Part shown: positions 2-52,389 of the stretch, piece after piece
How the letters are laid out: every line of letters starts with the position of its first letter
Position numbering within the stretch: the first letter of the stretch is position 1
Assembly: GCA_964527425.1 (NCBI GenBank)
Contig: CAZGOA010000007.1
Coordinates: 1-53,527 of the forward strand
Source of the DNA: an uncultured Gammaproteobacteria bacterium
GTDB lineage: Bacteria; Patescibacteriota; Microgenomatia; UBA10105; UBA927
DNA length: 53,527 nucleotides
Reading direction: 5' to 3'
The notes under the pieces: generated by a model
The model's input: only the letters and a program-made list of their open reading frames with translations
The model's database searches: none
Told to the model about the DNA's origin: nothing
Position numbers and translations under genes: made by a program

Positions 2-631
2 AGGAAAAAATACGCTTAAAACTTTTGTCCTAAGATGTGTGGATCTCCTTCAATTCAAGCCTACGAAATGGACTTTTTAACGGTTAAGTTACTTCAGGAG
101 ATAACTCCAACGGATGATTGCCTAAATGGCTTCATATCCTTACTCCGCCGTACCTATTATAAAAGGGTTGCAAGACTACAAAAACGCAAAGATGAGGCTG
201 ACTCGGATATGAAACGGTTGCAGGGACTTAGACAGTCCTTAATTGAGAAGAACTTAAGCGGTATATACAGCGATGAAATCTTTAAAGAACAGAACAGGTT
301 GATTGAAGAGCAAATGGCAAAAGTTCAGGTTACCAAAGACGATGCTATTCTTTCCAAATACAATCTTGAGGCAATCGTTAATTTTATGAAGGATAAATTT
401 GCTGATTTAGGCAAAACCTACCAGCAATCTGATATTCACCAGATACGGGTGCTATTGTGTTCGATATTCCCCTCCGGAATGTCTTGGAGCTATCCGGGCT
501 TTTCGAACACCTCGGTTAGCCCGTTATTCCAATACATTCAGGGTTTTGCCACAAATAGCGCCCCATTTGGTGAGCATGGAGGGACTCGAACCCCCAACCG
601 ACTCCTTAAGAGGGAGTTGCTCTACCATTGA
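2..631 (+). mobile_element. C-terminal part of a large serine recombinase (zinc ribbon plus coiled coil), with an in-frame TAA at 17-19; 3' end runs antisense into tRNA-Lys
   Basis: Frame reads RKKYA*NFCPKMCGSPS (zinc-ribbon-like), then a long coiled coil (RLQGLRQSLIEKNLSGIYSDEIFKEQ) typical of resolvase/recombinase tails; overlaps the tRNA at 568-631. Confidence 0.65.
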
Positions 632-21694: not shown

Positions 21695-21778
21695 GCCGTG
21701 GTGGTGAAATTGGCAGACACGTACGCTTTAGGGGCGTATGGGGGTAACCCCTTGGAGGTTCAAGTCCTCTCCACGGCA
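21695..21778 (+). tRNA. tRNA-Leu(TAG)
   Basis: GCCGTGG...TACGC-TTTAGGG-GCGTA, long variable arm, GGTTCAAGTCC...CCACGGCA. Confidence 0.95.
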
Positions 21779-21806
21779 CAAGGTAAGTTTAATGTGCGCG
21801 CCAATA

Positions 21807-27999: not shown

Positions 28000-29895
28000 A
28001 TGACTCAGATCAGCAACAGATCATCTCAACAATCTTCAAAAGGTCTGGGTATCTTTCAAACGACAAAAGATATTTACTATTATTATCGTTTAGGAAGACC
28101 CGAAGGAGCTGTGTTACAGGTTTTATCTTCTACAGATCCGTTAAATGTTCAAACCTTTCATACATATGGTACGTTTAAAAACAGAAATGGAGAAAATCGC
28201 ACTATTGATGGTGTAGAGTCATTTAGAATTTCTGAATTGGGCTCTGTATATGCGTTAACATACAAAGATAAATCAAATACTTCTGATGAATTACAACTTG
28301 CACTTTCAAAAGATCTGCAATCGTTTACCAGTATTACGAACATTAAAGGGATTAAAGAGACAGGGATGATTATTCCAAATCACTATGATAGTAAATCGTT
28401 TGTGATGGTATATGGAGAGCATGATTTACGAATTGCTACGTCAGATGATGTATTAACATGGAAGATACGTGAAGAGCCAATTGTTCATGCAATACAGGAT
28501 CATTTTGGAACATTATCTCTTATTGTCGGTGCTGTTATTCCATTAGATGTGGGTTACGCTGTTTTATATTATGCACGAGGAATTGGGGGATCACATTGGT
28601 CTATCCACGGCATCATTCTTGATAAAAAGAACCCGTCACACGTTTTATGGGAAGCAGATACTTTATGGGAATTACACAACGGCTGGGAAGAAAAACATGT
28701 CTCTCCATTAGGAATGATTTATCGAAATAATCAGTTATATTCTTATTGGGATTTTGAAAGCGAAGGTATTTTTGCAATGGAGCATCCAGCATTTAGTGGA
28801 ATGATTCATAAGAAAGCATCTTTTGCAAATTTACAACTCAATAGAATGGAACAAAATCCAGTTATAAAACCAAATTCTGAAAATTTCTGGGAATCTAAAC
28901 AAGTATTTAATGCTGCTGCAGTATATGAACAAGGAAAAGTACATTTAGTCTATAGAGCAATAGGGGATTATGATACATCTGTTTTAGGGTATGCTTCCAG
29001 TGAAGACGGCGTTCATTTTGATGACAAACATCCTGATCCAATTTATATTCCCACACAGCCGTTTGAAATGCCGCAAGGTGGTATACCCTGGTTTGCAAGC
29101 GGGCCTGGTAATTTAGTAAAAAGTCCATACGAATCAGGCGGGGGAGGATATGGTGGTTGTGAAGATCCAAGACTCACAAAAATAGAGGATCGCTATTACA
29201 TGACATATATTGCGTATGATGCAGCAAACCCCCCTCGAGTTGCACTCTCATCAATTAGTGTTAGTGATTTTCATAATAAGAACTGGAATTGGGAAACACC
29301 TGTATTAATCTCTCCTCCGGGAGTTGTAGATAAAAATTGTGTAATATTCCCAGAAAAAATTAATGGGAAGTATGCCATTATGCATCGCATTTACCCGAAT
29401 ATTTTAGTAGATTATGTTGATCATTTACGCTTTGATGGTGAAACGTTTTTGAGAGGAGAATACAAAATAAAACCAAGTAGAATGCTGTGGGATTCACGTA
29501 AAGTAGGAGCCGGTCCACCGCCTTTAAAAACAAAATATGGATGGCTCTTGATTTATCATGCTGTAGGTGAAAAAGATTCAGGTCGATATAAAATTGGAGC
29601 AATGCTATTGGATTTAAAAGATCCTACAAAAGTTATTGCCAGATCAATTGTTCCAATTCTTTCTCCAGATCATCCACATGATAACGAGGGGTTTAAATCT
29701 GGTGTTGTATATCCATGCGGAGCGATAGTTAAGGACGATCAATTAATTGTATATTACGGAGGTGCTGACACAGTTGTCTGTGGTGCTTCTACCAATCTTG
29801 AATCATTTCTTAATGAACTAATGGTTACAGGGTCTACAACAACAAAACCTATATATATACCTAAACTGCAATTTGCGTTTGCTACGGAAGAATAA
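28000..29895 (+). CDS. GH130-like glycoside phosphorylase/hydrolase with a degenerate N-terminal propeller
   Basis: VFNAAA, GCEDPR, DKNCVIFPEKINGKY, WLLIYH, GVVYPCG, YYGGAD. Confidence 0.85.
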   Translation: MTQISNRSSQQSSKGLGIFQTTKDIYYYYRLGRPEGAVLQVLSSTDPLNVQTFHTYGTFKNRNGENRTIDGVESFRISELGSVYALTYKDKSNTSDELQLALSKDLQSFTSITNIKGIKETGMIIPNHYDSKSFVMVYGEHDLRIATSDDVLTWKIREEPIVHAIQDHFGTLSLIVGAVIPLDVGYAVLYYARGIGGSHWSIHGIILDKKNPSHVLWEADTLWELHNGWEEKHVSPLGMIYRNNQLYSYWDFESEGIFAMEHPAFSGMIHKKASFANLQLNRMEQNPVIKPNSENFWESKQVFNAAAVYEQGKVHLVYRAIGDYDTSVLGYASSEDGVHFDDKHPDPIYIPTQPFEMPQGGIPWFASGPGNLVKSPYESGGGGYGGCEDPRLTKIEDRYYMTYIAYDAANPPRVALSSISVSDFHNKNWNWETPVLISPPGVVDKNCVIFPEKINGKYAIMHRIYPNILVDYVDHLRFDGETFLRGEYKIKPSRMLWDSRKVGAGPPPLKTKYGWLLIYHAVGEKDSGRYKIGAMLLDLKDPTKVIARSIVPILSPDHPHDNEGFKSGVVYPCGAIVKDDQLIVYYGGADTVVCGASTNLESFLNELMVTGSTTTKPIYIPKLQFAFATEE

Positions 29896-29901
29896 TAGGT
29901 C

Positions 29902-30912
29902 GTGTTGAATAGTTTCTTCCAACTTATGGATGTAAAATCACCCGTATTATTTAAGAGAGACCCAAACAATCCCATACTTCTTCCTGATAAAACACATGAC
30001 TGGGAAGCACAAGGTGCATTTAATGGATCTCCCGTAGTTATAGGAGATTCTTTAACAGTATTATATAGAGCGTTATCTTTCCCTCAGTCATTTGAAGGAC
30101 ATGAGATGGAAGTATCGCGCATTGGGATGGCTACATTTAATAAAAAGGGGGGTGTTACTTCACGAACCATATGCATCGCACCTGAAGAACCGTGGGAACG
30201 ATATGGTTGTGAAGATCCTCGAGTAACATTTTTTGAGAATAATTATTATATCTGTTATACAGGTCTTTCGACATATCCGTTTAACCCAGCAGGTATAAAA
30301 ATTGCAATGGCAAAAACAGCAGATTTTGAATCGATAGAACGACATCTGGTAACACCTTTTAATGCAAAAGCAATGGCACTTTTCCCAGAGCGAATAAACG
30401 GAAAAGTTGCAGCACTATTAACTGTAGACTCAGATATTCCACCATCTTCAATCTGTGTGGCACTAGCAGACTCTATTTCAGATTTTTGGAATTATGACTA
30501 TTGGGATAGATGGTATACATATAAACAACGCAATACGCTACCACTCCTTCGATCTCTTGCTGATCACATAGAAGTAGGATGCCCACCGTTAAAAACAGAG
30601 GATGGATGGTTAATTATTTATTCGTATATTTCTGCATATTTAACGAATACGAAAGTATTTGCGGTAGAAGCCGTTTTGTTGGACAGTGATAATCCATTAA
30701 AAATAAAGGCACGACTCCCATATTCATTATTACATCCTGAAGCTCCGTATGAAAAAAAAGGAGTTATTGATAATATTGTGTTTCCGACAGGATTATTACT
30801 AAATGGAGATATACTTTCACTCTATTATGGAGGTGCAGATCGAGTCTGTGCTGTAGCAACCTGTTCACTCAACGATTTATTAACTGCACTTAAAAAACAT
30901 CCAGTCAAATGA
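29902..30912 (+). CDS. GH130-like glycosidase
   Basis: GAFNG, YGCEDPR, NAKAMALFPERING, NIVFPTG, YYGGAD. Confidence 0.85.
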   Translation: MLNSFFQLMDVKSPVLFKRDPNNPILLPDKTHDWEAQGAFNGSPVVIGDSLTVLYRALSFPQSFEGHEMEVSRIGMATFNKKGGVTSRTICIAPEEPWERYGCEDPRVTFFENNYYICYTGLSTYPFNPAGIKIAMAKTADFESIERHLVTPFNAKAMALFPERINGKVAALLTVDSDIPPSSICVALADSISDFWNYDYWDRWYTYKQRNTLPLLRSLADHIEVGCPPLKTEDGWLIIYSYISAYLTNTKVFAVEAVLLDSDNPLKIKARLPYSLLHPEAPYEKKGVIDNIVFPTGLLLNGDILSLYYGGADRVCAVATCSLNDLLTALKKHPVK

Positions 30913-37337: not shown

Positions 37338-38531
37338 ATGACACAACAAATTAAAAAATTCGTGTCGGTCCTTGCCGCGGCATCATTGTTTGTTACCCAA
37401 GCACATGCAGCTACTATTTTAGTAACTGGAAATGGCTCAGAAAGTGACAATGACGTTAACTTTAATCAGTCAAGTTCAACCGCAGTCGTACAGACCAACG
37501 TTGCAACTGTAACAAATTCTGTTAACTCAAGTTCAACAACTGGAGGTAACGAAGCTAATGATAATACGGGCGGGGACGTCGTCATTTCTACAGGTGACGC
37601 AAAATCTACAACAAAAGTTGAAAACATGCTTAATCAAAATATGGCATCTATTGACTGCTGTGAAGAGGATGATGTTCACGTAGAAGTATCCGGTAATGGA
37701 TCAGACTCAGATAATGAAGTAAAACTTGATTTGGAAACAGGAAAAACCTTATTCCAGACCAATGTCGCATCAGTTGTTAACGCTGTTAACTCAGACGCAA
37801 AAACTGGCCGCAACGAAGCCAACCGTTCAACCGGTGGTGATGTCACCATCGTAACCGGTGATGCTACGGCAAAGAGCGACGTTTCAACTTCAGCAAATTC
37901 TAACCGAGCAATGGTTGGAGGAGGTCACCACAATGATGGAGGATCTCTCTCAGCATGGATTGTCGGAAACGGCTCAGACTCAGAAAATGACATCGATCTC
38001 GATGTTGTTAAAGGTCTTGCACTCGTTCAGGACAATTTAGCTTTAGTAGTAAATGCTGTTGATTCTGATGCTTACACTGGTAAAAACGAAGCTAACGATA
38101 ATACCGGAGGCGAAGTTGTTATCGGTACCGGAGACGCAAAAGCAGAAGCCATGGTTGAAAACATGGTTAACTTCAATGCTGCAAGTATTGACTGCGACTG
38201 CGTATTCGACACATCTGCAAAAATTTCCGGAAACGGATCTGACTCAGAAAACGAAATAGAAGCTGAAATCGAAGATGCACGTGAAGTGTTTCAAGATAGT
38301 TTAGCTACTCTCGCTAATGAAGTCGAAGCAGATGCCCGAACAGGCAAAAACGAAGCTGATTTCAACACTGGTAGTGTAGAAGGATCTGATCCTCGCATTA
38401 TCACTGGAGATGCTCATTCAACAACGGAAGTTGGTAACGCATCAAACATGAACGTGTTTGGTGGTGAATGGGATTTCCCAGAAGTTGAAGTTAACTTCAA
38501 CTGGGCTCACTTTATATCTTTCTGGATGTAA
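37338..38531 (+). CDS. Secreted repeat protein A: four ~90-aa GNG...TG.N.A..NTGG..TGDA repeats
   Basis: Signal peptide (QAHA), four aligned repeats, CC/CxC linkers, SD AGGAGGTGA. Confidence 0.85.
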   Translation: MTQQIKKFVSVLAAASLFVTQAHAATILVTGNGSESDNDVNFNQSSSTAVVQTNVATVTNSVNSSSTTGGNEANDNTGGDVVISTGDAKSTTKVENMLNQNMASIDCCEEDDVHVEVSGNGSDSDNEVKLDLETGKTLFQTNVASVVNAVNSDAKTGRNEANRSTGGDVTIVTGDATAKSDVSTSANSNRAMVGGGHHNDGGSLSAWIVGNGSDSENDIDLDVVKGLALVQDNLALVVNAVDSDAYTGKNEANDNTGGEVVIGTGDAKAEAMVENMVNFNAASIDCDCVFDTSAKISGNGSDSENEIEAEIEDAREVFQDSLATLANEVEADARTGKNEADFNTGSVEGSDPRIITGDAHSTTEVGNASNMNVFGGEWDFPEVEVNFNWAHFISFWM

Positions 38532-38692: not shown

Positions 38693-40909
38693 ATGAAAAA
38701 AATGTTTGCATTACTATTGGCTATCGTTTTAACAGTACATACTGCTACTCCAATTGTTTTTGCAATTAGTCCTCCAGCACCTCCAACAGCTCCTACCGCA
38801 CCAGCAGAGCCTACTCCACAAGCACCTGAACCAACACCTCCATCTCAACCTGATGCACCAACACCACCTAGTCAGCCAACACCATCGATAGGTGATCAAC
38901 AAAATGAGGAAGATGAAGATCAAAACGTAGATCAAAATGAAAACAATAATACTGAAGAACATGAAGATGAACAAGAACACAGTCAACCTGCAACAGCCGC
39001 TCAAGAACAACCAACACCTACACCAACCCCATCCACTGGAGGAGGAAATGTCGGTGATACTCGCATAATAACCGGAGATGCAAATAACACCGCTGCAGTA
39101 CTCACTGAAGCAAACACCAACGGGTCTGTTTCTACACCTGATGGAGGAAGTGGTGCAAGTATAGTAAATCAGGGAAATGGCAGTAATTCTGATAACACTT
39201 CATCTGCATCCATAATCGAAGATGACCAAACAATTCAAAACAATAATGCAGTTGTAAACAACGATCTTCAACTTGATTCTGATACAGGGAACAATGACAG
39301 CTCAAAAAATGTTGGAAATACTATTGTCAAAACTGGTGATGCAAATGTTTCAGGCACGGTCATCACAGCTGTAAATACAAACGTTGATGGCGTTATGGTA
39401 TCTGAGTTTAATATTGCAGATGATCATCAAGGAGATATAATTTTAGATTTTGGCAATAATTGTATCTCTGGTTGTGGTACTGGAAGCACACTTGCAAAAA
39501 ACACAGGTAATGGTTCTAATTCTGATAATGCTGCAACAGTTGATTCGACATCAAATACAGCTTCATTTCAAAACAATGATGCAACAGTTGGTAACAATCT
39601 GGTCCTTGACGCAAATTCTGGAAATAACCAGGCAAATGCTAATACAGGAGGAGACAGTGTTATTTATACCGGAGATGCCAATGTGTCTGCAAACGCCTTA
39701 ACGTTTGCCAATAACAATTTTTCTGGAAACGTGGTTTATGGAGTAGTAAATATCTACGGCGATTTAGTAGGGGATATTATTTTCCCTGAGGAACAAATGA
39801 CGAACTGCTGTGGAACAACTAATCAAACAGCACAAAATTCTGGAAATGGCAGTAACTCTACAAATAATGCCAATACGACAACAACGAATACTGACCTTGC
39901 ATTTCAAAATAATGACGCGGTCATTGATAACAATTTAATACTTGATGCAGAAACTGGAAATAATGATGTAAGTAGAAATACAAATGGTGATAACAGAGTC
40001 TATACAGGTGACTCCAATGTCACAGCAAATGTAGTAAATGTTGCAAACAATAACTTAAACGGTGGAAACATGTGGCTTGTGATTATTAACGAAGCAGGGA
40101 AATGGATCGGAAAAATAATGGGAGCTGACCCTGGTGCATCTATGGCTGCATCTGAAGGTACTATCTTAACAACGAATGAAAAAGGAGAGATAGTTGCATC
40201 CAATCAAGGAAATGGATCTGGTTCAAGCAACGATGCCAATACTAACTCAACAAATAATTCTACAACTGTTCAAAATAATGCTGCAAACATCCAAAATACT
40301 CTTGACTTATCAGCAAATACAGGTGGAAATCAAGCAAGCAACAATACTGGTGGAAACTCAAGTATTGTTACCGGCGATGCAAACATCATTGCCAACATGA
40401 TCAACTTTGTGAACAATAATATCGTTGGAGACAGCAAGTTATTCGTCACAGTAGTAAATGTCTTTGGCAGCTGGCTTGGTGACTTTGTAACACCAGGTCA
40501 AACCAAGGAACAAAACGTCATTGCTCAGTCAAATGATACTGAAGAGACAACGACGACAACTCAACAATATCAACAAACAGTTGTGACACCTACCCCAACT
40601 ACTACTCAAGAAGGTTCAACAGCAGTTACTGTTTCACCCTCTACACAAGTATCGTTAGTACAACGTAGAGCCGCAGTGTTAGGAACACAACAACGAGAAA
40701 TTGAGAACACAGGTAATAATTCTGCAGTCACCTTTGATGGAGAACAAATAGAGATTGCACCTGAGGCAACTATTACACCAGTCGTTGCCGGTAAAAAAGT
40801 CATAACCCTAAACTTAGCCTGGTTGATCATGCTAATCCCAGGTGTTATAATACTTGCTGTCGGAAGAAAAGTAGTACGCTTTACACTTCGACGCATGCCC
40901 CGCTCTTAA
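38693..40909 (+). CDS. Secreted repeat protein B: Pro-rich stalk, four full repeats plus one partial, C-terminal TM anchor
   Basis: Signal peptide, PTAPTAP region, GNGSNS.N/TGDAN repeats, TM followed by RKVVRFTLRR. Confidence 0.85.
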   Translation: MKKMFALLLAIVLTVHTATPIVFAISPPAPPTAPTAPAEPTPQAPEPTPPSQPDAPTPPSQPTPSIGDQQNEEDEDQNVDQNENNNTEEHEDEQEHSQPATAAQEQPTPTPTPSTGGGNVGDTRIITGDANNTAAVLTEANTNGSVSTPDGGSGASIVNQGNGSNSDNTSSASIIEDDQTIQNNNAVVNNDLQLDSDTGNNDSSKNVGNTIVKTGDANVSGTVITAVNTNVDGVMVSEFNIADDHQGDIILDFGNNCISGCGTGSTLAKNTGNGSNSDNAATVDSTSNTASFQNNDATVGNNLVLDANSGNNQANANTGGDSVIYTGDANVSANALTFANNNFSGNVVYGVVNIYGDLVGDIIFPEEQMTNCCGTTNQTAQNSGNGSNSTNNANTTTTNTDLAFQNNDAVIDNNLILDAETGNNDVSRNTNGDNRVYTGDSNVTANVVNVANNNLNGGNMWLVIINEAGKWIGKIMGADPGASMAASEGTILTTNEKGEIVASNQGNGSGSSNDANTNSTNNSTTVQNNAANIQNTLDLSANTGGNQASNNTGGNSSIVTGDANIIANMINFVNNNIVGDSKLFVTVVNVFGSWLGDFVTPGQTKEQNVIAQSNDTEETTTTTQQYQQTVVTPTPTTTQEGSTAVTVSPSTQVSLVQRRAAVLGTQQREIENTGNNSAVTFDGEQIEIAPEATITPVVAGKKVITLNLAWLIMLIPGVIILAVGRKVVRFTLRRMPRS

Positions 40910-46255: not shown

Positions 46256-46361
46256 TTGACCAGTTTGATAGATCATTCTAGACTAGTTCTTTAGAATATA
46301 TGAAATGGGGAATTAAAAAAACTATATAACGTAAAAACAAAGAGCCGCCGGCTCTTTTTTT
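46256..46361 (+). promoter_or_regulatory. Promoter, 9-codon uORF and terminator ahead of the argG operon
   Basis: TTGACC-N17-TAGACT; ATG AAA TGG GGA ATT AAA AAA ACT ATA TAA (46300-46329); AAAGAGCC-gcc-GGCTCTTT plus T-tract. Confidence 0.55.
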
Positions 46362-46378
46362 GTATTTAAAGGAGATAT

Positions 46379-48001
46379 ATGGATTCAACACACTATACTA
46401 AAGTATCCTCATACGAGGCAAAAGCAGGTGAAGTAAAAAAAGTAGTTTTACTATTTTCAGGGGGACTTGATACCTCATGTATGTTAACGTGGATTAAAGA
46501 AGAATTTAATGCGGAAGTAATTGCATTAACTCTGGATTTGGGACAGCAGGATGATAGTCTCGAAGCTATTAAGAAAAAAGCGCTTGCGTTAGGAGCAAAA
46601 AAAGCCTACGTTATCGATGTAAAAGATGAATTTGCAAATGATTATCTTACACACTTAATCAAAGCAAATGGTTCGTACCAGGGCGATTATCATATATCAA
46701 CAATAAGCAGATATTTAATGGCAAAATGGTCAGTCATTATTGCCTATAAAGAAAAAGCTGATGCGATTGCTCACGGATGCACAGGGAAAGGAAATGATCA
46801 GGTACGTATCGATGCAGCGGCCTTAGCACTTGATCCTAATATCAAAATAATTGCCCCCGTTAGAGAATGGGATATGAGTAGAGATGAGGAAATTGAATAT
46901 GCAAAAAAAAGGGGAATAGAAACACCAGCAAAAAAAGACTTCCCTTATTCAAGTGATGACAATATGTGGGGTATTACGTGGGAAGGTGGAGAGATAGAAG
47001 ATCCAAAAGAAATACCGCAAAGTGAACGATTCCTTACTGCTACAACACTCTTAGAAAAAACTCCTGATGTTCCTGAAAATATTACCCTAAGCTTTCGGAA
47101 AGGTATACCGTATGCAATAAATGGAACTTCAATGAAGTTATCTGAGCTGATTATGAAACTCAATACTATTGCAGGTGCCCATGGCGTTGGAGTTGTTCAT
47201 CACGTAGAAGACAGAGTCATAGGTTTAAAAAGCAGAGGTGTATATGAGCATCCAGCAGGTCATACAATCATTCAGGCTCACAAAGCATTGGAAAAATATG
47301 TATCATCCCGGCTTGAGAATGAACTCAAAGAAATGATGGATATTAAATGGGCTTACTTATGTTATGGAGCTCAATGGATGGATCCAGTACTCAGTGATAT
47401 TCATGCTTTTAATGATAAAATAAATGAAAAAGTATCAGGCGAAGTAACAGTAAAACTTTTTAAAGGTCATGCAACTGTTGTCGCACTTAATTCACCGTTT
47501 GGGCTTCATCATGCTTCATTTAATAGAACTGGAGGAGCAGCCTTTAATACACAAACATCAGCACCATTTATCGAAGTGTACAGTATGCAGGCACGGCTTT
47601 CACAGCAACGAGCTGAAAAAACTGCACTAATTTCTATTGGTAAACCGGAAGACAAACAAGAGCTCGTTTCGTCTATAAAAAAACTGGCACAACTACAGTA
47701 TCAATTATTTGCAACCGAAAAAACTCACAGATTTCTGATGGAAGAACATATTCCCTCTCTCCTTGTTCATAAAATCAGCTCTTCAAAACAACCGAACATC
47801 GGAACTATCTTTACCAATCGAGGATTTGATTTAATTATTAATATTCCACTCAGTGATAAAGGGAAAAAAGAAGAGACCGATGGAAATATAATACGGAAAT
47901 ATGCAGTTGAATCTAATACTCCACTGGCAACTGAAGTTGATGTAGCAAAGCAGATGATTGATAAATTGTATAAAGTCAAATTTGGAAATATGGAACAGTA
48001 A
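46379..48001 (+). CDS. argG: Argininosuccinate synthase fused to a C-terminal MGS-like (CarB allosteric-type) domain
   Basis: LLFSGGLDTS, AHGCTGKGNDQVR, YSSDDNMWG, LKSRGVYEHP; tail TALISIG...LFATEKT...DLIINIP...DGNIIRKYAVE. Confidence 0.88.
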   Translation: MDSTHYTKVSSYEAKAGEVKKVVLLFSGGLDTSCMLTWIKEEFNAEVIALTLDLGQQDDSLEAIKKKALALGAKKAYVIDVKDEFANDYLTHLIKANGSYQGDYHISTISRYLMAKWSVIIAYKEKADAIAHGCTGKGNDQVRIDAAALALDPNIKIIAPVREWDMSRDEEIEYAKKRGIETPAKKDFPYSSDDNMWGITWEGGEIEDPKEIPQSERFLTATTLLEKTPDVPENITLSFRKGIPYAINGTSMKLSELIMKLNTIAGAHGVGVVHHVEDRVIGLKSRGVYEHPAGHTIIQAHKALEKYVSSRLENELKEMMDIKWAYLCYGAQWMDPVLSDIHAFNDKINEKVSGEVTVKLFKGHATVVALNSPFGLHHASFNRTGGAAFNTQTSAPFIEVYSMQARLSQQRAEKTALISIGKPEDKQELVSSIKKLAQLQYQLFATEKTHRFLMEEHIPSLLVHKISSSKQPNIGTIFTNRGFDLIINIPLSDKGKKEETDGNIIRKYAVESNTPLATEVDVAKQMIDKLYKVKFGNMEQ

Positions 48002-48003
48002 TC

Positions 48004-48993
48004 ATGAAAAGTAAAAAAAATACACTTGAATATTATCACGTAAAACAGTTACTACTCGAAAAAATTAAAAAACAAGGTGGATGGGTGAATTGTCATTCAC
48101 ACATTGATAGAGCGTTTACTATTTCAAAAGATAATTTTCATTTATTTTACCGTCCAAGACCAGAAAAATGGAAGTTAAATGCAGAATTGAGAAGACATTC
48201 GACAACAGATCAAATCTATGATCGAATGGCAAAAGCAATTGAATACATGTTACATCAGGGTGTTCACGCAATAGGTTCTTTTATAGATGTTGATTATGAC
48301 ATTAAAGATAAAGGTATAAAAGCAGCCACAAAAATCCGGGAAAAATATAAAAACGACATTACGATTAAATATTTAAATCAATCAAGTTATGGAATACTTA
48401 ATAAAGAAGCAAGAGAGTGGTTTGAAGTTGGAGCTGATTTTGCAGACATAATTGGTGGATTATTAAAAGCTGATCAGGGAAAAGAAGAAGAACATTTAGA
48501 TATTTTACTAGAAGCAGCCTACAAACGAAAGAAAATGGTGCATATTCATGTAGATGAACAAAATATTACAGAAGAAAAAGAAACAGCAATATTAATTAAA
48601 AAAACTATTGAACACAACATGCAGAATAAGGTTGTTGGTATTCATGGAATCTCAATTAATACTCATCCCAAACACTATAGAGAAACACTTTATAGTGATA
48701 TAAAAAAGGCAGGAATAATGTTTATCTCGTGTCCAATGTCTTGGCTCAATGAACGAAGAAGTGAAGAATTAACACCAACGCATAATCCTATAACTCCTGT
48801 TGATGAGATGCTTCCATTTGATATTACAGTTGGTATTGGTACAGATAACATTGCAGATATTTGGATGCCGTTTAATGATGCAGACATGTGGAATGATTTG
48901 AGAGTACTTATAGAGGCAGCACGAATTTATGATATTGAAACGCTTGTTAATATTTCTACAGTGAATGGAAGAAAAATATTAGGTTTATCTTAA
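48004..48993 (+). CDS. Cytosine-deaminase-like metal-dependent amidohydrolase
   Basis: NCHSHIDRA, HIHVDE, GIHG, GTDNIAD.WMPF. Confidence 0.8.
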   Translation: MKSKKNTLEYYHVKQLLLEKIKKQGGWVNCHSHIDRAFTISKDNFHLFYRPRPEKWKLNAELRRHSTTDQIYDRMAKAIEYMLHQGVHAIGSFIDVDYDIKDKGIKAATKIREKYKNDITIKYLNQSSYGILNKEAREWFEVGADFADIIGGLLKADQGKEEEHLDILLEAAYKRKKMVHIHVDEQNITEEKETAILIKKTIEHNMQNKVVGIHGISINTHPKHYRETLYSDIKKAGIMFISCPMSWLNERRSEELTPTHNPITPVDEMLPFDITVGIGTDNIADIWMPFNDADMWNDLRVLIEAARIYDIETLVNISTVNGRKILGLS

Positions 48994-50052
48994 ATGAACT
49001 TATACGATATTTCTAAGCCGTTTGACTATAACACTAGGTTAGGGCCATTTTGGAAAGGTAAGATACCTCAAGTTCCTGTATGTAATAAGCCGTTTTCTTT
49101 TTTAGGACAGACAGTAAATTCATTATTTGGAGCATCTGCATTTCCATTAACTCATGGATGTAACGGAGTACGACTACTTTCTCAATTAGGATACGACATT
49201 ATTACGTATCGATCTGTCAGAAGTAAGCAGTGGTTAGGACAACCCTATCCACACTGGAGATATGTTGATATTACTAAACAATTAAGTGTTGAGGATCTAA
49301 ATAATCCCGTAAGAGGGGATGATAAACCGTTTTCGTTACAAGATGTCTCAACAGCAAATAGTTTTGGCATTCAGTCAGCTAAACCTGAGAATTGGCAACG
49401 CGATGTAGAGAAAGCAAAACATACCTTACAAAAAGGTCAGATACTAATTCTTTCTATCATGTTTACTCCCGAAGAAGGAAAGAATGTTATTAAAGATGCT
49501 GCTGAAGTTGCTCGGTACGCCAAGGAAACGTCAGTAATAGCGTTTGAGATTAATTTAGCGCATCCCAACTCTGGTATGAAATCACTCGTTTACGAAGATA
49601 TTGAAACAAGTGTAGCAATTTGTAAATCTATAAAAAAAATAATTACTGATAGACCATTAATTGCAAAAGTAGGATATTACAAAAACCAACAACTTCTGAC
49701 AGAATTTCTTAAACAAACGAATGGATTGATAGAAGGTATCTCGTCAACCAACACTTACGCTATGACGATCATTGATGCACAAGGGAAAGAACTATTCCCA
49801 AATCGACCAAAAGCAGGAGTTTCAGGGAACGCCATACGAACACTGTCCAAGCATCAAGCTAAAACGATAATAGATCAGAAAAAAGCATTAAGGCTTGACC
49901 ATTTAGCAGTAATTGGTATCGGAGGGGTTATCAAGCCAGAACATATACAACAGTATATTGATCTGGGTGTTGACGCTGTACAGGCAGCAACTGGTATTTG
50001 GGCAGATCCATTATTGGCAATTAAATACAAACGTACGTTATCTCTTAATTGA
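48994..50052 (+). CDS. Dihydroorotate dehydrogenase-like FMN protein with an altered active-site loop
   Basis: NSFG, EINLAHPN (vs consensus ExNxSCPN), STNT, IGIGGV, VQAATG. Confidence 0.75.
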   Translation: MNLYDISKPFDYNTRLGPFWKGKIPQVPVCNKPFSFLGQTVNSLFGASAFPLTHGCNGVRLLSQLGYDIITYRSVRSKQWLGQPYPHWRYVDITKQLSVEDLNNPVRGDDKPFSLQDVSTANSFGIQSAKPENWQRDVEKAKHTLQKGQILILSIMFTPEEGKNVIKDAAEVARYAKETSVIAFEINLAHPNSGMKSLVYEDIETSVAICKSIKKIITDRPLIAKVGYYKNQQLLTEFLKQTNGLIEGISSTNTYAMTIIDAQGKELFPNRPKAGVSGNAIRTLSKHQAKTIIDQKKALRLDHLAVIGIGGVIKPEHIQQYIDLGVDAVQAATGIWADPLLAIKYKRTLSLN

Positions 50053-50871
50053 AAGTGTTTTGATAGTAGAACGAATAGCATCTGTAGTCCACAATGGGAA
50101 GGAAACTACAGAAAATGGAGTTTCATTAACTCCTTCCATTTCTAATAGATCATCTTGTGAATAAGAAAAAGCACCAACTGTAACTCTAGACAATGCCCCT
50201 TTAATTCTTTGTTGTGCAATAGGATCATTCGTTTCATTCAGTAATGTTTTTGCCGCTTGTGCAAGACTTTGGATACTATCATCCAATAGAAACACACGTG
50301 TGTTTGTTGATGCTTCCTCAAGTGAAAACTGTCGGATTATTTTTGTTAACTTATCTTTTGAATCCGTACAAACAACAACTGTACCCTCTCTAAATCCATT
50401 CTTTTCAAGCCATTGGGAAGTTACAGCTCCTGCTTTTGGTCTTCTTGCGGTGAAATATCCACCAAATGTTCCATGGTATTTCTCAAAAAGTGAACTAAGA
50501 AGTGATACCCCGGAAACAGCTCCAGCCATCGGTGGGTAGTTAAGATGAATGTCTTCACTTTCAAGAATTATACTGCGTGCTTGTTCAAAAAGCATGTTAT
50601 CTGTTTGTTGTGTATCTTGATCTTGTTTACGTCTATTTGCAATTTGAGGGACATCAAACGTCTGTCGGTGATAACCAGAGATTCTGATTTCTTCTTCAGG
50701 AATATCCAATTTGAGTAATTCATTATATGTACGTACCTGATCTACCATTATCTCTGCCAGCACTTGATCTACATCAAATACAACTACTACATTTGTTAAA
50801 TCTGGATTTTCTTGAGCTAATATAAGCTCTAGAAAACGTTGTCGAGAAATTCCAGTTTCTTCAATTGCCAT
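50038..50871 (-). CDS. HAD-superfamily nucleotidase-like phosphatase
   Basis: VVFDVDQVL, YFTARR, FLLDDS. Confidence 0.6.
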   Translation of the reverse strand: MAIEETGISRQRFLELILAQENPDLTNVVVVFDVDQVLAEIMVDQVRTYNELLKLDIPEEEIRISGYHRQTFDVPQIANRRKQDQDTQQTDNMLFEQARSIILESEDIHLNYPPMAGAVSGVSLLSSLFEKYHGTFGGYFTARRPKAGAVTSQWLEKNGFREGTVVVCTDSKDKLTKIIRQFSLEEASTNTRVFLLDDSIQSLAQAAKTLLNETNDPIAQQRIKGALSRVTVGAFSYSQDDLLEMEGVNETPFSVVSFPLWTTDAIRSTIKTLSIKR

Positions 50872-51753: not shown

Positions 51754-52389
51754 ATGAAGAATAATATTATCGAGATGTTGAAATCGGTGGGTGCAATTAT
51801 TACAGATAGTCACGTTGTGTACACATCAGGAAAACATGGAAGTGTGTATATCAATAAAGATGCATTATATCCTCATACCGCTCTATCTTCTCAGGTAGGT
51901 CAGATGTTTGCAGAACTAAATAAACAATTAGATATCGATGTGGTTGTCGCTCCAGCATTAGGTGGCATTATTTTGTCTCAATGGACAGCATATCATTTAT
52001 CAGCAATAAAAAAGAAAGAAATACTTGGTGTTTATACTGAAAAGGATGCTGATAAAAATCAGATTTTTACCAGAGGATATGATTCGTACATAAAAGGGAA
52101 AAAAATATTAGTTATTGAGGATTTAACGACAACAGGAGGGTCTGTTCTGAACGTTGTTACACGTGTGCGTGATACTGGTGGAACAGTGGTTGGAGTCTCA
52201 GTTATGGTAAACAGAAATCCTGATCAAGTAAATGAATCACTTTTTAATGCACCGTTTTCAGCTTTAGGATTAGTAAGGGCAGAAGCATTTGATGAAGTCA
52301 ATTGTCCGTTGTGTAAAAAATCCATTCCTGTCAATACAACTGTTGGTCATGGTAAAAAATATCTCGAATCTAAACGTAGTACTAATTGA
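51754..52389 (+). CDS. pyrE: Orotate phosphoribosyltransferase
   Basis: SHVVYTSGKHGSVYINKD, LVIEDLTTTGGS, C-terminal CPLC. Confidence 0.85.
   Translation: MKNNIIEMLKSVGAIITDSHVVYTSGKHGSVYINKDALYPHTALSSQVGQMFAELNKQLDIDVVVAPALGGIILSQWTAYHLSAIKKKEILGVYTEKDADKNQIFTRGYDSYIKGKKILVIEDLTTTGGSVLNVVTRVRDTGGTVVGVSVMVNRNPDQVNESLFNAPFSALGLVRAEAFDEVNCPLCKKSIPVNTTVGHGKKYLESKRSTN

Follow-up and report, generated by a model that had tools for sequence, protein, structure and literature searches.

Why should an argininosuccinate synthase carry, at its C-terminus, the allosteric domain of a carbamoyl-phosphate synthetase, and which pathway does such a protein serve? The question is raised by a gene at positions 46379–48001 of contig CAZGOA010000007.1 (assembly GCA_964527425.1), of which a stretch of 53,527 nucleotides, here called the window, was analyzed. 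Hundreds of ultrasmall bacterial species (Patescibacteria/CPR) conserve the fusion, at the head of their pyrimidine gene clusters, and it may open an undescribed pyrimidine route. Public databases annotate the fusion proteins as plain "argininosuccinate synthase", and our literature searches found no paper that connects ArgG with an MGS-like domain.

Domain architecture of the fusion protein

The open reading frame (+ strand, ATG to TAA, 540 amino acids) encodes a full ArgG that continues in frame into a CarB-type MGS-like allosteric domain; the Pfam and NCBIfam matches agree with the initial annotation, which had read it as a complete ArgG of about 412 residues followed by about 125 residues of a CarB-type MGS domain. 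The argininosuccinate synthase catalytic module (residues 20–412; 46436–47614, + strand) matches Pfam Arginosuc_synth at residues 21–181 (1.4e-60) and Arginosuc_syn_C at residues 190–407 (2e-58), and the protein exceeds the cutoffs of the NCBIfam ArgG equivalog PRK00509 (468 bits vs. 334) and of TIGR00032 (418 bits vs. 268). The MGS-like domain with its putative phosphate/ribose site (residues 412–535; 47612–47983, + strand) matches Pfam MGS PF02142 at residues 428–518 (1.1e-13; 51.5 bits vs. a gathering score of 24.1); residues 405–534 match positions 926–1050 of the 1058 positions of the CarB model PRK05294 (3e-13), and positions 929–1050 of TIGR01369 are matched as well. For residues 414–540, no NCBIfam match to the mgsA enzyme family was obtained at E ≤ 0.01; CarB models and, weakly, PurH models were the only ones found. 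PDB sequence matches of the C-terminal part were likewise confined to carbamoyl-phosphate synthetases (human CPS1, 2yvq, 6.4e-06; E. coli CarB). The motifs ISIG..DK, ATEKT..FL, DLIINIP and DGNIIRKYAVE, on which the domain had originally been recognized, are all present in the translation. In the AF2 model the folded MGS domain spans residues 412–535, so that the boundary first drawn at 47618 (residue 414) was about right; residues 377–411, the C-terminal arm of the ArgG module and the linker to the MGS domain, have low pLDDT. A Foldseek search with the full model returned ArgG and CPS entries only, and never both domains in one structure.

The ArgG module retains the P-loop SGGLDTS at residues 27–33 (ATP pyrophosphatase pattern S-G-G-x-D-T-S), which is invariant in 64 relatives, and ArgG signature 2 (G-x-T-x-K-G-N-D-x-x-R) in the form GCTGKGNDQVR at residues 133–143. 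The signature residues T135, N139, D140 and R143 are invariant and align to Thermus thermophilus T116, N120, D121 and R124, which are aspartate and citrulline contacts (structure 1j1z); the positions aligned to T. thermophilus Y84, R92, S173, E184, E258 and Y270 are invariant as well. A literature search for ArgG residue roles found nothing, and some residue assignments at the ArgG and CarB sites are provisional.

Recurrence and selection

So unusual an architecture, and nothing further, speaks for an artefact, either a misassembly or a recent in-frame deletion by which argG came to be joined to carB's 3' end; loss of carAB sequence through such a deletion, with the fusion as its scar, was one of the two readings in the initial annotation. 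The search for the same architecture elsewhere, and the dN/dS analysis that had been suggested with it, point the other way. ArgG plus MGS was found in 120 of the 120 best homologue clusters, and the C-terminal domain is encoded by 293 stretches of species-representative genomes, mostly of Patescibacteria, nearly always within a single ORF of 535–562 amino acids, so the fusion is not unique to this assembly. What looked like a split ArgG/MGS pair in locus L061 turned out to be an effect of masking, a run of N translated as XXXX. The ArgG-MGS operon occurs in 20 or more sequencing runs, which come from 12 or more studies, and the junction is covered without indels by contigs of three independent metagenome runs. 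Median dN/dS over 42 pairs, computed by the Nei-Gojobori method, was 0.070 for the ArgG part and 0.106 for the MGS part; the latter value rules out relaxed selection on the added domain. The ArgG-linked MGS domains form a clade of their own, apart from the CarB domains, and in L001, L021 and L046 an intact carA-carB pair lies a few genes downstream of the fusion. Recurrence and the separate clade contradict the deletion scar, and with hundreds of species, purifying selection and independent contigs over the junction also against it, the artefact reading is refuted and keeps practically no weight. The fusion is old within Patescibacteria and has been kept by selection.

The putative ligand site

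Residues S419, K426, T446, T449, K465 and N488 align to E. coli CarB S948, K954, T974, T977, K993 and N1015, in an alignment of the MGS domain that is weak by itself (E = 0.19) and ends at residue 1036. Among 72 full-length single-ORF fusions extracted for residue conservation, K426, T446 and K465 never vary (72/72), and T449 and N488 are retained in 71/72 and 70/72, respectively; taken together, the six positions from S419 to N488 are conserved in 64–72 of 72 species, and the conserved putative phosphate/ribose site also includes D501. CarB K954, T974 and N1015 are presumably UMP/IMP contacts. Of their neighbors, T977 and K993 are crucial for UMP inhibition and binding in E. coli CarB, and the substitution S948F abolishes the response to UMP and IMP; the ornithine site of CarB is located at the interface with the carbamoyl-phosphate domain (PMC6245113). 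This ornithine site comprises T1042 and partner residues, and an ornithine response of ArgG-MGS is unlikely because the partner domain is absent from the protein. ArgG-MGS has a lysine at the position of CPS1 Trp1410, a residue of the N-acetylglutamate site; since lysine is kept there, the domain would be of the bacterial nucleotide type and not of the N-acetylglutamate type. The other reading in the initial annotation, an allosteric ArgG under nucleotide feedback, is the one that fits the site residues conserved in 70–72 of 72 fusions and the MGS dN/dS of about 0.11, and judged from these sequences the protein is very probably a functional ArgG with a ligand-binding regulatory domain.

Gene context in the window

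ArgG-MGS is the first gene of its operon. The 5' boundary is marked by a terminator-like GC hairpin with a T-run (46339–46357, + strand; 8-bp stem, T tail) that ends the upstream glycosyltransferase gene, and a Shine-Dalgarno-like AAGGAG, read off the sequence at 46369–46374 (+ strand), lies 4 nt 5' of the ATG. Only 2 nt past the ArgG-MGS stop begins an amidohydrolase of 329 amino acids (48004–48993, + strand; NCBIfam PRK06886, a "hypothetical" family), and directly past its stop a divergent flavoenzyme of 352 amino acids with the fold of dihydroorotate (DHO) dehydrogenase (48994–50052, + strand); this protein has AHPN in place of the catalytic SCPN of its relatives, and thus lacks the catalytic cysteine. 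A terminator-like hairpin at 50117–50133 separates the end of the operon from a convergent gene, and 1.7 kb beyond the DHO dehydrogenase-fold gene follows an orotate phosphoribosyltransferase-like gene of 211 amino acids (51754–52389, + strand), whose best family match, pyrE_Therm, reaches 123 bits, below the cutoff of 150. The 53.5-kb window contains no argH, argF or other arg genes, and no carAB, pyrB or pyrC. Rfam found tRNAs and nothing else in the window, and a promoter scan did not rise above shuffled expectation. That ArgG-MGS heads a pyrimidine and not an arginine gene cluster had not been remarked upon in the initial annotation.

Gene clusters in relatives

In relatives the cluster has a conserved order: ArgG-MGS, sometimes a DDAH-fold hydrolase, an AtzC/cytosine-deaminase-like amidohydrolase, DHO dehydrogenase, PyrF and PyrE. 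Neighbors were scored within ±10 kb at the 34 loci flanked on each side by 6 kb or more of sequence; 32 of them have the amidohydrolase, 27 DHO dehydrogenase and 23 OMP decarboxylase, and the counts for CarB, ATCase, DHOase and ArgH are 5, 4, 3 and 2. CarB, ATCase and DHOase are all absent within 10 kb in 19 of the 21 loci that have DHO dehydrogenase together with pyrE or pyrF. The amidohydrolase lies at most three genes downstream of ArgG-MGS in 56 of 65 loci, with gaps mostly of −4 to +20 nt, and a gene of the DDAH/arginine-dihydrolase fold is placed directly 3' of ArgG-MGS in 17 loci; if the latter makes citrulline from arginine, remaking arginine through ArgG would be futile. Of 82 loci, 9 have ArgH within 10 kb, and in L043, L054, L061 and L072 it is the immediate neighbor of ArgG-MGS, which suggests that ordinary arginine synthesis is at least an additional role.

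In four loci (L001, L021, L046 and L072) the fusion and the amidohydrolase occur together with all of the canonical genes carAB-pyrB-pyrC-pyrD, so the pair is not a simple replacement of that set; the coexistence of dihydroorotase and amidohydrolase there also weakens the latter's candidacy as a plain dihydroorotase substitute. An OTCace-family gene in L001, considered as the ornithine carbamoyltransferase of an ornithine cycle, is a true ATCase (TIGR00670, 343 bits).

The closest solved relatives of the amidohydrolase are AtzC (4.7e-16) and the cytosine deaminase CodA (1.8e-13). Its metal ligands H31, H33, H182, H214 and D281 are conserved; an HxxE deaminase motif was considered as a further conserved feature and rejected, position 185 being E or Q. 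Gene fusions connect the members of the cluster further: the amidohydrolase is fused to DHO dehydrogenase in L003 and to an MGS domain in P0165, and MGS-DHO dehydrogenase and AsnRS-like-MGS-DHO dehydrogenase-PRTase fusions also occur, so that one MGS subtype has four fusion partners: ArgG, the amidohydrolase, DHO dehydrogenase and an AsnA/AsnRS-like enzyme.

A possible role in UMP synthesis

The operon in the window, and the pyr clusters of its relatives that mostly lack carAB, pyrB and pyrC, suggest that ArgG-MGS works for UMP synthesis, either instead of arginine synthesis or in addition to it; it is likely that the protein belongs functionally to a UMP-synthesis module. The reading that we favor, with somewhat less than even confidence as a whole, is a nucleotide-regulated ArgG committed to UMP synthesis, probably supplying argininosuccinate as a pyrimidine precursor. 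ArgG-MGS is predicted to convert citrulline, aspartate and ATP to argininosuccinate, AMP and PPi, and argininosuccinate would be an ATP-activated carrier in which the carbamoyl group of citrulline is already bonded to aspartate. Release of ornithine by the neighboring amidohydrolase, or by the DDAH-fold enzyme where present, could then yield carbamoyl-aspartate or dihydroorotate, from which DHO dehydrogenase, PyrE and PyrF would carry the synthesis through to UMP. The MGS domain, apparently taken from a carbamoyl-phosphate synthase, may keep its nucleotide-monophosphate pocket and, by analogy with CarB, exert feedback of the UMP/IMP type on the entry step. The sequences directly show the architecture and its recurrence, purifying selection, the conserved site residues, the gene order and the gene fusions, whereas we infer the identity of the ligand, the allostery and, above all, the conversion of argininosuccinate to a pyrimidine precursor; the ornithine-releasing bypass chemistry is put forward tentatively.

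With similar caution, Patescibacteria that have the cluster may build the pyrimidine ring with no need of carbamoyl phosphate, ATCase or a canonical dihydroorotase, by way of citrulline-aspartate ligation and under UMP feedback through a copied MGS domain. Citrulline would be imported or formed from arginine by the DDAH-fold enzyme; the AtzC-like amidohydrolase would remove ornithine from argininosuccinate or from its six-membered cyclic form, in some lineages perhaps with the assistance of an ATP-dependent AsnA/AsnRS-like cyclo-ligase; and copies of the CarB-derived MGS domain on ArgG, the amidohydrolase, DHO dehydrogenase and the AsnRS-like enzyme could convey UMP feedback. Literature searches for a CPR pyrimidine bypass, or for argininosuccinate-to-dihydroorotate chemistry, returned nothing relevant.

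The main competing explanation, which we consider plausible though doubtful, is a conventional arginine-biosynthetic ArgG, with ArgH encoded elsewhere, that has acquired a nucleotide-sensing domain; pyrimidine or purine nucleotides would then set the partition of shared aspartate and carbamoyl groups, the UMP super-operon would reflect co-regulation only, and the adjacent amidohydrolase would be a cytosine-deaminase-like salvage enzyme. The equivalog score and the full set of motifs in the ArgG part are consistent with it, as are the loci with ArgH adjacent (four) or within 10 kb (nine); one preprint reports that argG and argH are enriched along with pathways of de novo nucleotide synthesis in a genus of Saccharimonadia, and in mammals ASS1 and CAD are established competitors for aspartate (PMC12363443). 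Cytosine-deaminase-like salvage also fits the JGI name of the amidohydrolase (cytosine/creatinine deaminase), its co-operonic pairing with a uridine kinase, on the opposite strand, in 11 loci, and the UPRT genes present in the clusters. However, the fusion keeps far closer company with the amidohydrolase than with ArgH (32 vs. 2 of the well-covered loci), the DDAH/arginine-dihydrolase-fold gene that comes next in 17 loci is odd for an arginine-producing operon, the fusions of the amidohydrolase with DHO dehydrogenase and with MGS connect it with the de novo branch and with the regulator that ArgG-MGS also carries, and most clusters contain pyrD, pyrE and pyrF, yet have no visible source of dihydroorotate.

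Two further explanations are improbable, the second slightly more so than the first. The MGS domain could act without binding a small molecule, as a structural, oligomerization or docking module that, for instance, gathers the MGS-bearing pyrimidine enzymes; four different enzymes of one cluster bear the same subtype, and the domain follows the ArgG C-terminal arm, which forms tetramer contacts in known structures, but the positions that do not vary coincide exactly with those aligned to the CarB phosphate/ribose site and do not form a surface patch. ArgG-MGS, ArgH and the DDAH-fold arginine hydrolase could also form an arginine-citrulline cycle that resembles the purine nucleotide cycle, with a net conversion of aspartate to fumarate and NH3, in which fumarate would be the electron acceptor of a class-1 DHO dehydrogenase in organisms that have neither a TCA cycle nor quinones. 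L072 and L063 each have all three types of enzyme, the DHO dehydrogenase genes are class-1-like with the SCPN motif, and aspartate ammonia-lyase-like genes, also fumarate-yielding, are part of the clusters of L010, L024 and L049. Against such a cycle, ATP would be spent to AMP and PPi for each fumarate whereas aspartase needs none, ArgH is seldom near the fusion, and the most tightly linked gene, the amidohydrolase, is left unexplained.

Textbooks treat de novo pyrimidine synthesis as universal; CPR bacteria, in which carAB, pyrB and pyrC are missing, are for that reason usually recorded as unable to carry it out. Should the ring derive from argininosuccinate, as in the UMP-synthesis reading favored here, metabolic reconstructions would understate the autonomy of a large part of bacterial diversity; a pathway regarded as universal would gain a new entry, enzymology would gain an ornithine-releasing argininosuccinate hydrolase or cyclase as a new activity, and dependence on a host for arginine or citrulline would be predicted. 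On the conservative reading too, the fusion would be the first ArgG with a dedicated allosteric domain, and would clearly illustrate the copying of a regulatory module among enzymes that have carbamoyl and aspartate metabolism in common.

Comparison with known systems

Residues 20–412 are 41–44% identical to solved ArgG/ASS1 enzymes (EC 6.3.4.5; Legionella 6xnq/7k5z, T. thermophilus 1j1z) with a TM score of 0.87 (44% and 0.87 for Legionella 7k5z), and share their P-loop, signature 2 and substrate-contact positions; in contrast, none of the solved ArgG structures has an MGS-like domain, which is added here as 125 C-terminal amino acids, and the genomic context consists of pyrimidine genes and not of arg genes. 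The best family match of this domain is the allosteric domain of E. coli CarB (residues 937–1073) and human CPS1; in CarB it regulates a carbamoyl-phosphate synthase and includes an ornithine site, whereas in ArgG-MGS it is attached to another enzyme and an ornithine site is impossible. AtzC (N-isopropylammelide isopropylaminohydrolase) and CodA both remove amines hydrolytically from an sp2 carbon flanked by nitrogens, in AtzC an alkylamine from a ring carbon; the amidohydrolase of the window is approximately 75–100 amino acids shorter, has no N-terminal beta-sandwich, and falls into the separate NCBIfam family PRK06886. In CPS-less organisms, arginine-derived carbamoyl groups feed pyrimidines; the CPS-less Thermococcales, with the arginine synthetase ArcE and OTC, share with the proposed route the logic that the ureido carbon of arginine or citrulline, and not CPS, feeds pyrimidine synthesis (PMC13260591). 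The Thermococcales route proceeds through free carbamoyl phosphate, OTC and ATCase, whereas the proposed argininosuccinate route would bypass both carbamoyl phosphate and ATCase.

Architecture of the Fusion Protein

The reading frame at 46379-48001 (+), 540 amino acids from ATG to TAA, joins a complete argininosuccinate synthase in frame to a CarB-type MGS domain; here the initial annotation was correct in both description and coordinates, as indicated by the ORF itself, Pfam, NCBIfam, and an AlphaFold2 model. The two ArgG domains recognized by Pfam span residues 21-181 and 190-407 (both with E about 1e-60); an MGS-like domain follows at residues 428-518 (51.5 bits; gathering score 24.1). In NCBIfam, the N-terminal 412 residues matched the argininosuccinate synthase equivalog with 468 bits (cutoff 334), and residues 405-534 aligned with positions 926-1050 of the 1058-position CarB model; the NCBIfam methylglyoxal synthase model did not match the C-terminal part, and the PurH match was weak. 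Carbamoyl-phosphate synthetases were the only solved structures matching this part in a sequence search. The AlphaFold2 model (64 homologs as input; mean pLDDT 81.9) has a confident ArgG body, a disordered segment (377-411) equivalent to the ArgG C-terminal arm, and a confident alpha/beta domain (412-535). With this model, Foldseek retrieved ArgG structures first (Legionella ArgG: TM 0.87, 44% identity) and then CPS1/CarB; no solved structure combining both parts was found among these matches in the PDB. Homologs of the fusion are publicly annotated as 'argininosuccinate synthase' only, and no description of the domain combination was found in the searchable literature.

Invariant across 64 homologs of the ArgG module are the P-loop SGGLDTS (27-33), the signature GCTGKGNDQVR (133-143), and the positions aligned to Thermus thermophilus Y84, R92, T116, N120, D121, R124, S173, E184, E258, and Y270, residues involved in citrulline and aspartate binding in that enzyme (structure 1j1z). 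In the MGS module, a HMMER alignment that is weak on its own (E = 0.19) paired S419, K426, T446, T449, K465, N488, and D501 with E. coli CarB S948, K954, T974, T977, K993, N1015, and D1025. Among 72 species-level fusions, K426, T446, K465, and D501 were conserved in all, T449 in 71, N488 in 70, and S419 in 64. In CarB, residues 937-1073 form a sheet whose C-terminal edge accommodates IMP; UMP inhibition and binding depend critically on T977 and K993, and the S948F substitution abolishes the response to UMP and IMP (review PMC6245113). Since the invariant columns coincide with this known site, the CarB-type domain carries an intact nucleotide-site signature, joined to an ArgG that is under selection and has its active site intact; very probably, this domain recognizes a phosphorylated, UMP/IMP-type ligand and regulates ArgG. 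Ornithine, initially named among the CarB ligands, is not expected to elicit a response, because its site in CarB is the interface with the carbamoyl-phosphate domain (review PMC6245113), which the fusion lacks.

Recurrence and Selection

The same architecture recurs in other genomes: it was found in 120 of the 120 best homolog clusters (56-99% identity, 518-572 aa), whose named members are Patescibacteria (Parcubacteria, Microgenomates, Torokbacteria). Each GTDB species, represented by one genome, was scanned with a profile built from the last 136 residues, which yielded 293 confirmed stretches; in nearly all of the best 80 loci, which were retained, ArgG and MGS share a single ORF of 535-562 aa. 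One apparently split ArgG/MGS pair (locus L061) was rejected, the break being a masked run of N. An exact match to the operon was present in at least 20 public sequencing runs, drawn from at least 12 metagenome studies of bioreactors, sludge, and wastewater, and contigs from three of four runs examined cross the ArgG-MGS junction without indel. Median dN/dS, from pairwise Nei-Gojobori estimates on 42 unsaturated pairs, was 0.070 in the ArgG portion and 0.106 in the MGS portion, which is thus under strong purifying selection, not relaxed. Recurrence, junction-spanning contigs, and low dN/dS together exclude a misassembly as well as the initially considered scar of a carAB-removing deletion; the probability that the fusion is an artefact is negligible.

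Many MAGs with the Patescibacteria-type cluster (L009, L011, L014-L016, L018, L020, and many others) carry record titles such as 'uncultured Gammaproteobacteria' or 'Pseudomonadales' or, in a few cases, Limisphaerales, Acidiferrales, or Sulfotelmatobacter; such discordant titles probably reflect placeholder or mis-binned taxonomy.

Gene Neighborhood and Partner Enzymes

In the window, the fusion opens a compact operon; 5' of its ATG are an AAGGAG box and, further out, a terminator-like hairpin (46339-46357). An amidohydrolase gene (48004-48993, +) starts 2 nt past the fusion's stop, directly followed by a DHO_dh-fold (dihydroorotate dehydrogenase-fold) gene (48994-50052, +) and the next terminator-like hairpin (50117-50133); a pyrE-like phosphoribosyltransferase gene (51754-52389, +) lies 3' of the operon. 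No argH, carAB, pyrB, pyrC, or pyrF was found in the 53.5-kb window, the remainder of which is CPR-type housekeeping (CysRS, ProRS, DnaX, YchF, GH130). The DHO_dh-fold protein has the motif EINLAHPN, with the catalytic Cys replaced by His and Ser by Ala, and its score against solved DHODH B is only 22 bits; all canonical PyrD of the loci, and 22 of 23 divergent DHO_dh relatives, carry N-x-S-C-P-N, which includes the catalytic cysteine. Elsewhere in the window, ORFs at 37338-38531 (397 aa), 38693-40909 (738 aa), and 50038-50871 (-) (277 aa) lack Pfam and NCBIfam matches, the last being convergent on the operon and found in near-identical relatives only. A tRNA-Leu(TAG) at 21695-21779 was called by ARAGORN and not by the Rfam gathering-threshold scan (four tRNAs vs. 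three), and two adjacent GH130 (mannoside phosphorylase family) genes lie at 28000-29895 and 29902-30912, the first with an N-terminal extension of about 385 aa without family match.

Across relatives, the fusion heads a UMP-synthesis cluster, other members of which also acquire the same MGS domain. ORFs were called in 82 non-redundant loci and labeled from seed proteins verified by Pfam and NCBIfam. Where each side offered at least 6 kb of sequence (34 loci), the amidohydrolase was present in 32, DHO_dh in 27, OMP decarboxylase in 23, a PRTase in 15, and a DDAH/ADI-fold protein in 12; CarB occurred in five, ATCase in four, dihydroorotase in three, and ArgH in two. DHO_dh occurs together with pyrE or pyrF in 21 loci, 19 of which have no CarB, ATCase, or DHOase within 10 kb. 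Among 65 loci with downstream sequence, 35 have the amidohydrolase and 17 the DDAH-fold gene directly 3' of the fusion, mostly at gaps of -4 to +20 nt.

Several clusters have further members. In a variant (L005 11636-14319; also L009, L018, L032, L082) without a DHO_dh gene nearby, ArgG-MGS is followed by a 454-aa amidohydrolase (8-oxoguanine deaminase-like, below cutoff), a protein of about 438 aa with only a weak radical-SAM match, and PRTases. A small CBS-pair protein (153-181 aa), possibly a further adenine nucleotide-sensing partner, is encoded immediately 5' of ArgG-MGS in 10 loci (e.g., L001 9277-9774; L005, L008, L010, L014, L021, L024, L046), usually directly after the F-type ATP synthase operon. 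Genes resembling aspartate ammonia-lyase (488 bits, slightly below the subfamily cutoff) are part of some clusters, beside DHO_dh (L010 12503-13810; L024 12892-14172; L049 15964-17274), and could provide aspartate or fumarate.

The amidohydrolase matches NCBIfam PRK06886 'hypothetical protein' (411 bits), and its close homologs are Patescibacterial as well; its closest solved relatives are cytosine deaminase and AtzC, which hydrolytically removes isopropylamine from N-isopropylammelide. Its metal ligands (H31, H33, H182, H214, D281) are retained across 56 members. In locus L003, an amidohydrolase with 50% identity to that of the window is fused to DHO_dh. In L023 (11857-12474, -) and 10 other loci, uridine kinase is encoded together with a PRK06886-type amidohydrolase, opposite in strand to ArgG-MGS, which ties the amidohydrolase to UMP supply by salvage too. 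The DDAH-fold protein scores just under the cutoffs of the Mycobacterium tuberculosis-type dimethylargininase and arginine dihydrolase models, and is therefore a predicted arginine-type guanidino hydrolase.

An exhaustive MGS-domain profile search (2600 matches at E <= 1e-3, 621 at <= 1e-10) found the same subtype on an amidohydrolase of the window family (P0165, 31% identity), on DHO_dh (P0143), in CarB and CarB-ATCase proteins, and on a class-II aaRS core resembling AsnRS/AsnA, either without further domain (L019 11392-12882; L034 11389-12879; L043 5561-7054; L085 8861-10360) or continued into DHO_dh and PRTase (metagenomic proteins P0155 and P0129; 1134 aa). The AsnRS/AsnA-like proteins lack an anticodon-binding domain and are encoded inside the same clusters; they may be ATP-dependent ring-closing or amidating pathway enzymes. 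In a rough NJ tree, ArgG-linked MGS domains form one clade and AsnRS-like/DHO_dh-linked domains its sister, with CarB domains outside both. A Peribacteria CarB (L080 7040-10447, 1135 aa), whose MGS scores 94-111 bits to the ArgG-linked subtype vs. 54-91 in other CPR CarB, may lie near the donor lineage.

Proposed Pyrimidine Route and Alternatives

We tentatively propose, as a reading with a substantial though less than even chance, that pyrimidine synthesis is entered here through ArgG. Argininosuccinate has an N-C-N unit already joined to aspartate; hydrolysis at its guanidino carbon, by chemistry of the AtzC or the amidinotransferase/DDAH superfamily type, would free ornithine and leave carbamoyl-aspartate, and release of ornithine from a six-membered cyclic form would give dihydroorotate. 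The clusters encode the last three steps (PyrD, PyrE, PyrF) and usually none of the first three. AsnA activates the beta-carboxylate of aspartate, and the AsnA-like enzyme is placed where ATP-driven ring closure would be required. A citrulline-forming DDAH-fold enzyme beside ArgG would make little sense if its product were recycled to arginine, and a feedback domain on ArgG would be logical if ArgG were the committed step.

ArgH adjoins the fusion in four loci and lies within 10 kb in nine, and for a Saccharimonadia genus a preprint describes co-enrichment of argG and argH with nucleotide pathways; ordinary arginine synthesis must therefore be counted as a parallel role at the least. The fusion-amidohydrolase pair precedes a complete carAB-pyrB-pyrC-pyrD operon in some relatives, a salvage deaminase would fit the 11 loci where the amidohydrolase shares an operon with uridine kinase, and the absence of canonical genes was assessed within 10 kb of the fusion. 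Thus the main rival, tenable if somewhat doubtful, is a conventional ArgG in which nucleotides, through the new domain, govern how aspartate and carbamoyl groups are divided between arginine and pyrimidines. That the MGS domain is a purely structural module is improbable, and an arginine-citrulline cycle making fumarate for DHO dehydrogenase is, if anything, slightly more so.

Comparison With Known Systems

In every testable respect, the fusion protein belongs to the ArgG family, and its C-terminal domain, except for the ornithine site, to the CarB-type MGS-like family. The pyrimidine-entry reading, if confirmed, would be categorically new. Thermococcales without CPS obtain the pyrimidine carbamoyl group from arginine (PMC13260591), and the biological need is therefore real; their route passes through OTC and carbamoyl phosphate, whereas the proposed ArgG-MGS route would pass through argininosuccinate.
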